Assembly: GCF_058153355.1 (NCBI RefSeq)
Contig: NZ_CM177019.1
Length of the DNA: 64,000 nucleotides
Strand: one strand, 5' to 3'
Shown here: one piece after another, positions 8,447-17,509 of the stretch
Numbering within the stretch: the stretch's first letter is position 1
Layout: each line of letters begins with the position of its first letter
Position numbers and translations under genes: made by a program
Notes under the pieces: model-generated
What the model was told of the DNA's origin: nothing
Seen by the model: only the letters and a program-made list of their open reading frames with translations
Databases searched by the model: none

Positions 8447-8506
8447 TCGATTGATTAATATAAAGAGGCCCAGCAATAAATAGCCAGACCTCCCTTTAAT
8501 TATACG

Positions 8507-9535
8507 TTATGCAGTAACGCCTTCCGGTATCAGCGAAGCAATTTGCTTACGCCATTGCGCTTGCTCCTGTTCGCCTTCTGTACGTTGACCATAAAGTTGC
8601 GCTATCTGCGTACCATCATGGGCAAACAATTCCAGACTGGTCACATAACCGTCACTAGCAGGTTTACGGGTTACCCAGGTTTCAGCAATGCTCTCTTCTA
8701 ATAGATGAAGAGTAAACGTCGGGTTAAAAATATTCAGCCAACCTTTCATTGGCACCACTTTTTCTACCACGCCAGTGAAAATCTGTACGCAGCCACGGTT
8801 GCCAACAAACACCATGATTTCATTGCCATCCTGCTGTGCAGATTCAAGAATTTGCGCCAACGCACTGTTGGATACTTTGCAGGCCAAATCATCTGCCACC
8901 AAATTGAACGCCTGTTGGCGCGTCAGGTTGTGGCGCTTGAGCAACGTAAAAAACTGATGAACGTCGGTCATCGCCCGCCACTCTTGCTCGACCACACTGG
9001 CATCGGCTCGCGTTTGAACAACTGGCGCATCAACGGCTTTTAACTCAAGCGGCGTATTCTCATCGGTGATAAACCGTGCCAGAAGCTCACTCCATGCCGC
9101 CATATCGGTATTGTCGGTGGCATAAACTTTTAGTAATGCATCGCCCTGATGATCAAAGAACTGAATACTCTGGCGTTCGCCACGAGTCGTATTTTCTTTG
9201 ATGTGGAAAACACTGGCCCATTGATTGAGAAACAGACGCAAATCCAGCGCGCGCGGATTGAGGATCAATCCGGCATGTCCGTTTAAATGCTGGTTTGTGA
9301 ACGCACCAACTTGCTCATGGACTGCATATTCATTACGACAAATACATTTGGTCTCGCCAACACTTTCGAGCGCCGCCAGAATGTCACGGATATCGCCGCA
9401 CATCCGCCACGCATCGTGCGTGACGCGCGCAAATGCCAGTTCTGCTTCGCTAATATTCATTAAACCTGCGATGTCACGCGCGTACTTTCCGGGATTTTGT
9501 TCTTTTAACTCAAGCCAGCGTGTGTAGTGGTTCAT
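8507..9535 (-). CDS. chuS: Haem utilisation / haem-degrading protein ChuS (342 aa)
   Basis: ORF 8507..9535; MNHYTRWLELKEQNPGKYARDIAGLMNISEAELAF... matches ChuS/ShuS; immediately downstream of chuA. Confidence 0.9.
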   Translation of the reverse strand: MNHYTRWLELKEQNPGKYARDIAGLMNISEAELAFARVTHDAWRMCGDIRDILAALESVGETKCICRNEYAVHEQVGAFTNQHLNGHAGLILNPRALDLRLFLNQWASVFHIKENTTRGERQSIQFFDHQGDALLKVYATDNTDMAAWSELLARFITDENTPLELKAVDAPVVQTRADASVVEQEWRAMTDVHQFFTLLKRHNLTRQQAFNLVADDLACKVSNSALAQILESAQQDGNEIMVFVGNRGCVQIFTGVVEKVVPMKGWLNIFNPTFTLHLLEESIAETWVTRKPASDGYVTSLELFAHDGTQIAQLYGQRTEGEQEQAQWRKQIASLIPEGVTA

Positions 9536-9583
9536 TGTCTCTCTTCCTTCCAGATAAATGCCCCGAAATATCGGGGCAGATGA

Positions 9584-11566
9584 TTACCATTGATAACTAA
9601 CGAAAATTTTTCCGTTACGACCATCCTGTGGGATGCCTTGCGGCGACCAGTACTCTTTGTCGAAGGCGTTGCCCAATACCAGAGTAGTGGTCATACCTTT
9701 GAGCGCCTGCTGCCCTTGATAACTGACGTAGAAATCATTCACACCATAGCCAGGTTGTTTGCTGTAACTGCTGCTGATATGTGTTGAGCGATCGGCAAAC
9801 GTACCGACCCAACCAACAGAGAAGCCACTGTGAGCGATCGGAATATTCAGGGTGCTGGTAACGGTATCCGGGTTAATACTGGAAATATATTCCCCGGTAT
9901 CGGTGTCTTTGCCGCGGGTACGGTTATAGGCCACATCAAGGCTAAACAGATCAGTGGTATATTTCGTCATCACATCCCAGCCCCAGATTTTGGCGTTCGG
10001 GACGTTATACGACATAGTTGTCGCCGCCGCGAAATCGACAGTCGTGGAGATGTAATCCTTCGCTTTGGTATCAAAGTAGCTGGCTTTAAATTCCAGGGCA
10101 TCATTGGACAACATCAGGTCATCAAAACGCAGCCCAAAACCGTACTCCTGAGTTTCGTTAGTTTCCGGACGTAAGTTCGGGTTTGGCACCCAATAGTTGG
10201 TATAGAAGCGACCAATCGAGAAGTGCTTAGAATCGTTATACATTTCGCCCATCGTCGGGGCGCGGAATGCCTGGGCATATGAGCCAAATAACATCAGCCA
10301 GTTGGTCGGGTTGATAGTCATCCCCGCACGAGATGACCATTTGTCAGCATCAACATCTTTGTAGCCGTCGCTGCTACCGTGATAACTGTCATAGCGGGTT
10401 CCGCCAAGCAGGGTAATCGGCAGATCGCGTAAGGTGATCTCATCCTGTAGCCAGCCAGAGCTAAAATCGATTTTTGCTTGCGGAAAGCCCGTCGTCGCGC
10501 CACCCGGATGTTGTTCCTGACGATAATACTCACCGCCATATGTCAGTAAGTGAGAAGCGAAACTGTCGGCAAATAGAGTGGAACGGTTCTCCAGCCTGGC
10601 TCCTTTTGTTATCTGTTCACGATACTCGCCGGAACTCCCCGTGTTTTGCGCATTAATACGGACTTCCGACCAGTAAATTTTTGCATCTGCATTTAACCAG
10701 TCGTTGCCCTGCGGGGCGAGTTTATAAGAAAGCTGCGCATCGCGTTGAATTGTTGAACGATCAACCATCGGGTTGCTGTTTTCAGAAGCCTCAACGGTCT
10801 GCGGATTTTTTGGTTCACGCGCGTCGTTGTTGTAGTAACGCACTAAACCGCTCAGAGACTGGGCTGAATCAATTTGCCAGGTCCCTTTCGCCAGCATGTT
10901 ATTAATGGACTCGTCATTCGGCGCGGTTTCACCATTGCTCTGGCGTAAATCACCCCGATCGCGACTGGACCAGGCCACAATACCATCCAGATTTTCAGTT
11001 CGCCCAAACGCGCTCGCGCCTAATCCCAGGCTATGGTCCCCCGTGCCACCAGTACCAAAGACACGAAAACCACTACTTTGTCCTTCCTGCAATAAATCTT
11101 TTGCATCGACCGTATCGTAGGAGATCACCCCACCCAGCGCGCCACTGCCATACAGTAATGCTGAAGGTCCGCGAACAATCTCAACACGCTTGATCAGCGC
11201 CGGATCGAGAAAAGTACCATTCAGATGTCCGGTATCCGTTCCCTGGCGAACACCATCGACAAGAACCAGCACGCCGCGATGATCATAGCCACGCATATTT
11301 ACATCCTGACCGTTGGTTCGTCCGGTACCATCAAGAGTAATTCCAGGAACATGACGCAGCAGATCGGTGGCTGAAGTAGCCGTTTGATTTTCAGGAGCGG
11401 AAGTGTCGATGACGCTGACCATCATAGGCGCTTCGAAGGAACTACGGGCATTCCCCGTTGCCGTAACGGTCATGGTTTCAGTAGCAAAAGCAAACGTTGG
11501 CAAGGTGGCAGAAACAGCCAAAGCCAACAAACTCAAACGCAACGAGGTAAATTGCGGACGTGACAT
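9584..11566 (-). CDS. chuA: TonB-dependent outer-membrane haem/haemoglobin receptor ChuA (660 aa)
   Basis: ORF 9584..11566; signal peptide, plug and barrel motifs, C-terminal ...KIFVSYQW; matches ChuA/ShuA. Confidence 0.95.
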   Translation of the reverse strand: MSRPQFTSLRLSLLALAVSATLPTFAFATETMTVTATGNARSSFEAPMMVSVIDTSAPENQTATSATDLLRHVPGITLDGTGRTNGQDVNMRGYDHRGVLVLVDGVRQGTDTGHLNGTFLDPALIKRVEIVRGPSALLYGSGALGGVISYDTVDAKDLLQEGQSSGFRVFGTGGTGDHSLGLGASAFGRTENLDGIVAWSSRDRGDLRQSNGETAPNDESINNMLAKGTWQIDSAQSLSGLVRYYNNDAREPKNPQTVEASENSNPMVDRSTIQRDAQLSYKLAPQGNDWLNADAKIYWSEVRINAQNTGSSGEYREQITKGARLENRSTLFADSFASHLLTYGGEYYRQEQHPGGATTGFPQAKIDFSSGWLQDEITLRDLPITLLGGTRYDSYHGSSDGYKDVDADKWSSRAGMTINPTNWLMLFGSYAQAFRAPTMGEMYNDSKHFSIGRFYTNYWVPNPNLRPETNETQEYGFGLRFDDLMLSNDALEFKASYFDTKAKDYISTTVDFAAATTMSYNVPNAKIWGWDVMTKYTTDLFSLDVAYNRTRGKDTDTGEYISSINPDTVTSTLNIPIAHSGFSVGWVGTFADRSTHISSSYSKQPGYGVNDFYVSYQGQQALKGMTTTLVLGNAFDKEYWSPQGIPQDGRNGKIFVSYQW

Positions 11567-11855
11567 AGCGATTCTCCATGAGGAAAATAAAAAATGCTGG
11601 CTGCCTGGGTTAATACCGGGGTGGCTTGCGAGAAATAAATTTATTTAAAATTCAGAGCGATAATATTCGCCGGGTGAGTTTACAGGCGTTTATATCCCAT
11701 GAAATTGCCTGGTATCTCGGCAAATACGCAAAAGCACGCCCTCTTTGTCAGGCAAAACGATATGCCCCATCAGGAGTGAAGAGCGCTGTGCGTTATCCCT
11801 TGCAAATGCTATGGTTTTGTTATCCATATGGTCGTGTTTTGTTAAGCGCGAACGT

Positions 11856-16691: not shown

Positions 16692-17458
16692 TCAGCGCCC
16701 AGAATCTGGTTTATAGCCTTCAGGGGCGGCGTCTGACTGATAATGTCTCGCTGACTTTTCCCGGTGGGGAAATTGTTGCCATTCTCGGCCCTAATGGTGC
16801 GGGAAAATCTACGCTGCTTCGCCAGTTAACCGGCTATCTTCAACCTGATAGCGGCGAATGTCGGTTGTTTAATAAGCCATTAAATGAATGGTCGATTACT
16901 GAACTGGCGAAACACCGGGCCGTGATGCGTCAAAATAGCCACATGGCGTTTCCATTCAGCGTACAAGAAGTTATCCAGATGGGGCGGCATCCGCATCGTA
17001 CTGGTAATCAGGATAATGAAACAGCACAAATAATGGCGTTATGTGACTGTCAGGCGTTAGCAAACCGCGACTATCGGCAATTATCCGGTGGTGAACAACA
17101 GCGCGTGCAATTAGCGCGCCTGCTGGTGCAACTCTGGGAACCAACTCCCTCACCGAAATGGTTATTTCTTGATGAACCAACTTCGGCGCTGGATATTCAC
17201 CATCAGCAGCACTTGTTTCGTTTATTACGCCAGCTAGTTCACGAACGGCAGTTCAATGTTTGCTGCGTATTGCACGATCTAAATCTTGCCGCGCGTTATG
17301 CAGACCGTGTTGTATTAATGCAAAAAGGAAAGGTTATCGCAAATGGTAAACCGCAGGACGTATTGACACAGCAGGCGCTGACAATGCTCTACGGCGCGGA
17401 TATTACCGTACTTAAAGATCCTGCCAACCATTCACCACTGATCGTCCTCGATCATTAA
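16688..17458 (+). CDS. chuV: Haem ABC transporter ATP-binding protein ChuV (HmuV), 256 aa
   Basis: ORF 16535..17458 trimmed to the ATG at 16688 (ATGA overlap with chuU stop); Walker [10 protein letters not shown], signature LSGGEQQR, Walker [12 protein letters not shown]. Confidence 0.9.
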
Positions 17459-17464
17459 AACCAA

Positions 17465-17489
17465 CAGGAGTACCGCTCTGGTACTCCTG
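17465..17489. terminator. Bidirectional terminator hairpin between convergent chuV and yhiD
   Basis: caggagtacc-gctct-ggtactcctg, perfect 10-bp stem. Confidence 0.6.
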
Positions 17490-17509
17490 CGAATAAATAA
17501 CTATATAGA

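Follow-up and report, generated by a model that had tools for sequence, protein, structure and literature searches.

What occupies the site between dctR and yhiD in those Escherichia chromosomes that differ here from K-12, and how old is its occupation? The question is raised by a 64,000-nucleotide stretch of contig NZ_CM177019.1 (RefSeq assembly GCF_058153355.1), hereafter the window, in which a sequence-only reading, made without database searches, had placed a haem-acquisition cluster at this site. We conclude, with a probability of about 97%, that positions 8507-17458 hold an intact copy of the haem-utilisation locus known as chu in E. coli and shu in Shigella dysenteriae, at the place on the chromosome, between dctR and yhiD, where it is normally found. 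This locus is already known and ordinary, since the locus itself, its operon structure (chuAS, chuTWXY and chuUV) and its functions have been described in the literature. More tentatively, and at rather less than even odds, the dctR-yhiD site is proposed to be an old two-allele polymorphism across Escherichia that moves by homologous recombination in its flanks; a separate proposal, put forward just as tentatively, is a candidate FNR box at chuTWXY.

Identity and gene content of the locus

All eight haem genes named by the sequence-only reading (chuS, chuA, chuTWXY and chuUV) were recovered as open reading frames (ORFs) at the predicted coordinates, each with a start and a stop codon, and the ORF map contained no internal stop in any of them (Table 1). 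A megablast search with positions 8447-17509 returned annotated chu loci at 100% coverage and 99.8% identity. The gene order, orientation included, is that of the RefSeq-annotated loci, with chuA and chuS read in one direction and chuT, chuW, chuX, chuY, chuU and chuV in the other, and the annotations under the best match are chuS, chuA, shuT, hutW/chuW, hutX/chuX, chuY, shuU and a haem ABC ATPase.

The protein matches bear the same assignment out. Solved structures of ChuS, ChuA/ShuA, ShuT, ChuX and ChuY were matched, and ChuW, ChuX and ChuV scored above the cut-offs of their equivalog models; a solved structure was also looked for in the case of ChuW and none was found. For ChuA, the mature residues 29-660 are covered by PDB entries 9dir, 9dhe and 3fhh (ShuA) with E = 0, and the protein scored 586 bits against TIGR01785, the TonB-dependent haem/haemoglobin receptor subfamily, for which the cut-off is 317. 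The length of chuU is that of annotated ShuU/ChuU.

Residues expected of working proteins were also inspected. ChuS has both Arg100 and His193 conserved and contains two HutX-like stretches, corresponding to the two-repeat HemS/ChuX fold. ChuA carries histidines at mature positions 86 and 420 and ends in an aromatic residue (SYQW), and the CxxxCxxC [4Fe-4S] motif of ChuW is present as CATHCTFC at residues 67-74. The roles of these ChuS, ChuA, ChuW and ChuV residues, like the ShuA numbering, we take to be those generally described for the families. The locus is considered intact because the ORFs are full length, the structures and models are matched and the checked residues are all in place.

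Table 1. Positions of the genes and of the predicted regulatory and RNA features at the chu locus and its flanks, numbered from the first letter of the window
Feature	Position	Strand	Description
dctR (yhiF)	7916..8446	+	left flanking gene; annotated in matching genome and in K-12
chu-specific DNA	8447..17506		9,060 bp, 50.3% G+C; stands for 38 bp of the 41-bp K-12 spacer
stem-loop	8462..8495	-	13-bp stem in the dctR-chuS spacer, directly downstream of chuS
chuS	8507-9535	-	cytoplasmic haem-degrading/haem-binding protein, 342 aa; PDB 1u9t/4cdp full length, E = 1e-227; RefSeq
G+C-rich 8-bp hairpin, then UUUAU	9559..9578	-	48-bp chuA-chuS gap; dG -16 kcal/mol, z = -2.5; terminator-like site
chuA	9584-11566	-	TonB-dependent outer-membrane haem/haemoglobin receptor, 660 aa
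shuA/chuA FourU RNA thermometer	11564..11595	-	Rfam RF02597, 60.1 bits, gathering score 58; occludes chuA Shine-Dalgarno
chuA 5' untranslated region (UTR)	11567..11859	-	long, ~291-293 nt, from the putative transcription start
Fur box (chuA)	11856..11874		2 mismatches; overlaps chuA promoter; block invariant in 4 species
chuA promoter-like site	-35 TTGATC 11894-11889, -10 AATAAT 11871-11866	-	17-bp spacer; -10 under Fur box
perfect FNR consensus TTGAT-N4-ATCAA (TTGATAAAAATCAA)	12128..12141		centre -72.5 from chuT transcription start
chuT/shuT 5'UTR	12207..12248	+	42 nt; Fur box 12207-12225 (+1 to +19, 3 mismatches) and predicted shuT RNA thermometer
chuT	12249-13163	+	periplasmic haem-binding protein, 304 aa; PDB 2r7a/2rg7 (ShuT), E = 6e-162, residues 49-304
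chuW	13183-14520	+	radical-SAM methyltransferase, anaerobic haem ring opening; TIGR04107 571 bits, cut-off 400
chuX	14533-15027	+	cytoplasmic haem carrier; PDB 2ovi full length, E = 9e-108; TIGR04108 208 bits, cut-off 110
chuY	15027-15650	+	anaerobilin reductase; PDB 5guy/5ffq full length, E = 4e-134; RefSeq name
G+C-rich 9-bp stem-loop, no U-tract	15656..15676	+	48-bp chuY-chuU gap, boundary of the chuTWXY and chuUV units; dG -18.1 kcal/mol, z = -1.9
chuU	15699-16691	+	haem ABC transporter permease, 330 aa, GTG start, 993 nt; FecCD/BtuC-family matches
chuV	16688-17458	+	haem ABC transporter ATPase; NF010068 395 bits, cut-off 261; Walker A and LSGG motifs
hairpin	17464..17490 (core 17465-17489)	-	perfect 10-11-bp stem, 5-nt loop, then UUGGUUUUAAU; apparent intrinsic terminator for yhiD
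yhiD	17510..18157	-	right flanking gene; NF007431 402 bits; annotated in matching genome and in K-12

Regulatory sequences and predicted function

The sequence-only reading had also assigned Fur boxes to both divergent transcription units, and both were found. With up to three mismatches allowed, the 19-bp Fur consensus has two matches in 64 kb against 0.02 expected, and both lie in the 682-bp chuA-chuT intergenic region, at positions that agree with published work (PMC5458455, PMC3660397). When this region is aligned across four Escherichia species, variation is confined to the sequence between the promoter, Fur and thermometer blocks, and these blocks were found in every chu-positive locus examined. 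A short ORF of 18 codons between the two promoters (11935-11991) is probably not a gene, its ATG being absent in the three other aligned species. Low-threshold Rfam hits to ceN63 and Hammerhead HH9 inside the locus were discounted, their scores being far short of the gathering scores.

The long leader of chuA is in keeping with the published 5'UTR lengths of 293 and 291 nt (PMC3660397, PMC9002310). Its thermometer is predicted to form a hairpin in which UUUUCC pairs with GGAGAA, invariant in the four species, and the function of the shuA element has been demonstrated (PMC3660397). In S. dysenteriae, shuT transcription starts 42 nt 5' of the start codon, the Fur site spans +1 to +19 with three differences from the consensus, and the 5'UTR is an RNA thermometer in which U15 and U16 are critical (PMC5458455). 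The leader of chuT in the window reproduces this mapped geometry base for base, including U15/U16.

Upstream of chuT lies a perfect match to the FNR consensus (Table 1), one of only two such matches in the 64 kb, where 0.12 would be expected. Its centre is close to the spacing of class I activators, and it may thus be regarded as a candidate site of that class. The box is invariant in all chu-positive loci examined, from E. coli, E. albertii and two further species of the genus, and its distance from the chuT Fur box is constant at 79-80 bp. The other perfect match, at 31549-31562, lies about 115 bp upstream of the start of ccp (yhjA), which we take to be a known FNR-activated gene, and served as a positive control for the pattern.

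No report of an FNR box at chuT was found in the searchable literature. A study of avian pathogenic E. coli (APEC) described control of chuA by FNR through a different predicted site in APEC O1, TTGTAATGTTTCAA, and this site is absent from the window even with two mismatches allowed. An FNR box at chuT would make biological sense, since chuW and chuY act anaerobically.

Four hairpins were observed in or next to the intergenic spaces of the locus. The one at 17465..17489 had been described as a bidirectional hairpin; the hairpin itself stood, with folding energies of -17.9 on the plus strand and -20.7 on the minus strand and equally good folds in 0 of 200 shuffles, but "bidirectional" was half right, as the U-rich tail is found on the minus strand only, downstream of yhiD. 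On the plus strand the hairpin lies 6 nt past the chuV stop and is followed by CGAAUAAAUA, in which a U-tract is absent, and a terminator consensus scan called the site on the minus strand only. Two other Escherichia species have the sequence of 17464-17490 unchanged. As a canonical intrinsic terminator, the hairpin would appear to serve yhiD only.

The stem-loop at the other end of the locus (8462-8495; dG -19.4 to -20 kcal/mol, z = -3.5 on the minus strand and weak on the plus strand) is probably the 3'-end hairpin or terminator of chuS. The hairpin in the chuA-chuS gap is possibly an attenuator or an RNA-stability element within the chuAS transcript, and together with the one in the chuY-chuU gap it could tune relative expression inside the operons.

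From the literature on this family, TonB-energised ChuA would take haem from host haemoproteins over the outer membrane, ChuT would shuttle it across the periplasm and pass it to the ABC importer ChuUV, and ChuX and ChuS would bind it in the cytoplasm, where under oxic conditions ChuS would degrade it. Under anoxic conditions the ring would be opened by ChuW, a radical-SAM enzyme, to give anaerobilin with release of iron, and ChuY would then reduce the anaerobilin. Expression would be driven by divergent promoters, two in number, between chuA and chuT, both of them presumably repressed when iron is plentiful since each has a Fur box, and RNA thermometers in the 5'UTRs would gate the translation of chuA and chuT, opening at 37 °C.

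Some points weigh against the identification of an intact, working chu system. No NCBIfam model scored above its cut-off for ChuT, ChuU or ChuY, whose identity is drawn from PDB matches and RefSeq annotation. The 42-nt chuT 5'UTR folds no better than shuffled sequences, and it is predicted to act as a thermometer because its sequence is identical to that of the published shuT element. The chemistry of ChuS is debated in the literature, which describes it as a haem oxygenase, a hematinic-acid former or a haem store, and the expression and function of the system in the source strain are predicted from homology. Nothing was found that contradicts the identification of the genes as chu.

Distribution and history of the dctR-yhiD site

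Megablast of 8447-17509 against 5426 complete E. coli genomes found the whole chu stretch in 2238 of them (about 40%) at 95-99.8% identity, with 100% coverage in 2234 genomes, and a search with the K-12 junction found the empty K-12-type dctR-yhiD site in 3179. The site is thus essentially two-state in E. coli, the two counts together covering 5417 of the 5426 genomes. The 2238 genomes hold the stretch in 2239 places, essentially one copy each, all of them chromosomal and none on a plasmid.

As the sequence-only reading had held, the source is a chu-positive Escherichia lineage and not K-12, in which the site is empty. Complete genomes at 99.7-99.8% identity are the closest and number 12, their hosts being human, dog, goat and bovine, and the remaining 2226 stand at 95-99%; the source lineage is therefore rare among complete genomes, with at least 99% identity in just 12 of the 5426. 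The insertion sequences (IS) of the window, an IS66-family element and IS4, together with the nearest relatives, speak for E. coli as the source and not for Shigella.

The source belongs to a chuA-positive phylogroup, not to A or B1 like K-12. The two Clermont primer pairs for chuA map 288 bp and 279 bp apart within the gene, which are the published amplicon sizes, and these spacings validate the primer sequences used. The site of primer chuA.2 (11044-11063) has one 5'-proximal mismatch, TGCCACC for TGCCGCC. On its primer sites, the source would be predicted to type as chuA-positive; the other Clermont markers lie outside the 64-kb window.

The position within the slp-gadA acid fitness island was as described, the locus being preceded by slp-dctR and followed by yhiD-hdeBA-hdeD-gadE-mdtEF-gadW, and this co-location has already been published (PMC5799925, PMC9144400). 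The borders are indeed sharp. In K-12 MG1655 the end of dctR is separated from the yhiD stop codon by 41 bp; in base-by-base alignment the window is identical to K-12 up to the dctR TGA (8446), unrelated from 8447, and identical again from 17507, where identity restarts at AGA, 3 bp before the yhiD stop codon (17510-17512). When chu-positive genomes were queried with the K-12 junction, the split matches broke at exactly the positions corresponding to 8446 and 17507. The ORF map likewise bore out the convergent gene ends that had been noted at both borders.

A DctR scan of species-representative genomes returned six Escherichia loci, an incomplete sample that lacks the E. coli species representative and E. 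fergusonii, both probably missed by the peptide-pattern method. Full chu loci were present in E. albertii (L009) and in two genomes labelled E. coli but only 90% identical (L005 and L008); the site is empty in Escherichia sp. E1V33 (L007) and E. whittamii (L010). The loci of E. albertii and the two other species occupy the same slot at 88-90% identity, which is species-level divergence, and their chu-bearing alleles are orthologous to that of E. coli. In E. albertii, chuV is followed directly by hdeB and yhiD is missing (L009 19560-19630), in agreement with PMC5799925. A third state of the site was seen in Escherichia sp. MOD1-EC7003 (L006 13648-14300), where chuS, chuA and the chuA promoter are kept and a deletion corresponding to about 11996-17501 of the window has removed chuTWXYUV; an enterobacterial repetitive intergenic consensus (ERIC) repeat stands at the deletion junction, and another copy lies within the chuA 5'UTR.

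The empty sites can also be compared with one another. The 41-bp K-12 spacer (L002 5215-5255) shares 27 of 41 positions with the 42-bp spacers of Escherichia sp. E1V33 and E. whittamii (L007 and L010, both 10532-10573), an alignment score that was matched by 0 of 20,000 shuffles. The empty allele would be old as well, since these 41-42-bp spacers are orthologous among K-12, E. whittamii and Escherichia sp. E1V33. It thus looks, from a small sample, as if both alleles are old and have been exchanged by homologous recombination, a reading that fits the "puzzling distribution" of the locus remarked upon earlier (PMC5799925).

The strongest competitor is that the K-12 state arose by a simple, recent and clean deletion of an ancestral chu locus, so that the 41-bp spacer is a scar and no "island" was ever inserted. 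The presence of chu at the same site in outgroup species speaks for this, as does the partial deletion in Escherichia sp. MOD1-EC7003, and so do the flanks of chu-positive O157:H7, where dctR differs by 0.3% from chu-negative K-12 (against 2.9% from the chu-positive window) and yhiD by 1.1%. On account of these K-12-like flanks we also rejected linked haplotypes, in which the flanks within E. coli would follow the chu state.

A scar, however, is at odds with the orthology of the K-12 spacer to the empty-site spacers of E. whittamii and Escherichia sp. E1V33. It is also at odds with the search for spacer remnants at the two ends of the island, on both strands and with shuffle controls, which gave no robust similarity (best p ~0.002 in 48 tests). 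A nominal match of the K-12 spacer to the reverse complement of the left spacer (p ~0.002-0.009 among the 48 tests) was treated as chance because it is not shared by the other empty-site spacers, and aligning spacers with MAFFT gave nothing convincing. A recent deletion is therefore judged unlikely, though it retains some weight beside the reading of two old alleles.

Far less probable, and largely refuted, is the recent arrival of a mobile pathogenicity island in the dctR-yhiD spacer, carried by an integrase, a phage, an IS or a plasmid. The absence of chu from K-12 and from 3179 of the E. coli genomes invites this view, as do the sharp borders and the link to virulence, and some papers speak of the locus as "pathogenicity island encoded". 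The ORF map, however, showed no integrase, transposase or other IS gene and no tRNA at the borders, and the search there for direct or inverted repeats gave nothing beyond chance-level short matches. The G+C content of the chu DNA (50.3%) is that of the window (49.9%), the outliers being the adjacent AT-rich acid-fitness genes at 36.7% and 39.2%; the locus thus falls outside the class of integrase- or tRNA-associated pathogenicity islands. Plasmid copies were never found, and E. albertii and two further species of the genus carry the locus in the same slot. The description of the locus as an island embedded in the acid fitness island was accordingly right as to position; it also suggested an insertion, and the locus does not look like a recent one.

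That the cluster is a decayed, non-functional remnant in the source strain can be put aside as most improbable: such decay does occur in relatives (chuSA only in Escherichia sp. MOD1-EC7003, and chuU annotated at 810 nt in O157:H7 Z892, L011 11878-12687, against 993 nt in the window and other lineages) and three IS copies lie elsewhere in the window, but here each of the eight ORFs has the full length of its solved or annotated reference and no internal stop, the checked catalytic and ligand residues and regulatory motifs are intact, and the alignment with the closest annotated loci runs unbroken through the region at 99.8% identity.

Related systems and significance

Comparison with known systems places the locus with the chu loci of pathogenic E. 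coli (O157:H7 EDL933/Sakai, CFT073 and UTI89; chuAS, chuTWXY and chuUV), with which it shares its genes, order, orientation and dctR/yhiD flanks at 95-99.8% nucleotide identity, the differences being allelic only. The Fur boxes, the chuA FourU thermometer and the long chuA 5'UTR are also the same (PMC3660397, PMC9002310). The difference in chuU length from O157:H7 Z892 given above suggests that the O157 permease may be shortened. The shu locus of S. dysenteriae type 1 consists of shuS, shuA, shuTWXY and shuUV (Wyckoff et al., 1998, as cited in PMC5799925). The structures of ShuA (3fhh) and ShuT (2r7a) were matched by the window proteins, as was the Rfam shuA_thermo model by the chuA leader.

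More distant relatives share the logic rather than the sequence. The hem/hmu systems of Yersinia (HemR/HmuR, HemS/HmuS and HmuTUV) likewise combine a TonB-dependent receptor, a binding protein in the periplasm, an ABC importer and a HemS-type protein in the cytoplasm, and structures of HemS and HmuT were matched by ChuS (E = 3e-150) and ChuT (E = 7e-43), but the sequence similarity to the window is far lower and the chromosomal context differs from that of chu. In Vibrio cholerae (hutWXZ and hutBCD), anaerobic radical-SAM haem degradation is held in common, with ChuW and ChuX scoring as HutW and HutX equivalogs; HutZ takes the place of ChuS/ChuY, and the gene order and the receptor are different.

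Several other features were recorded in the window. An IS66-family element (1256-5162; tnpA, tnpB and a transposase; termini GTAAGCG...CGCTTAC) lies downstream of a permease gene, is bounded by an 8-bp target duplication, CTATAAGG, and is itself split by a copy of IS4 (1362-2802); the whole IS66-family insertion is absent from the closest relative, E200086. Between treF and yhjB (33541-34983) there is another IS4, with 99.7% identity to the copy at 1362-2802, and IS4 is also found at this place in some E. coli genomes (e.g. strain 24AR0376). An ORF like yhiS (5725-6948) is intact at 407 aa in AT-rich DNA (29-35% G+C) and has no NCBIfam match; the K-12 copy of yhiS is a pseudogene disrupted by IS5. 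Outside the locus, Rfam hits at gathering score comprised the ES205 small RNA (21266-21337, just downstream of gadE), GadY (27117-27230) and the rdlD antitoxin RNA (63759-63824).

The chu locus is a textbook virulence-associated iron-acquisition locus and chuA a standard phylotyping marker, and the region can be annotated with confidence. Of modest specialist interest are the evidence for old alleles that cross species boundaries at the dctR-yhiD site and the conserved, apparently unreported FNR box. If functional, this box would turn on the anaerobic haem-degradation genes chuW and chuY without oxygen, and activation at chuT would be the counterpart of the published repression, mediated by FnrS, of ChuS, which depends on oxygen.

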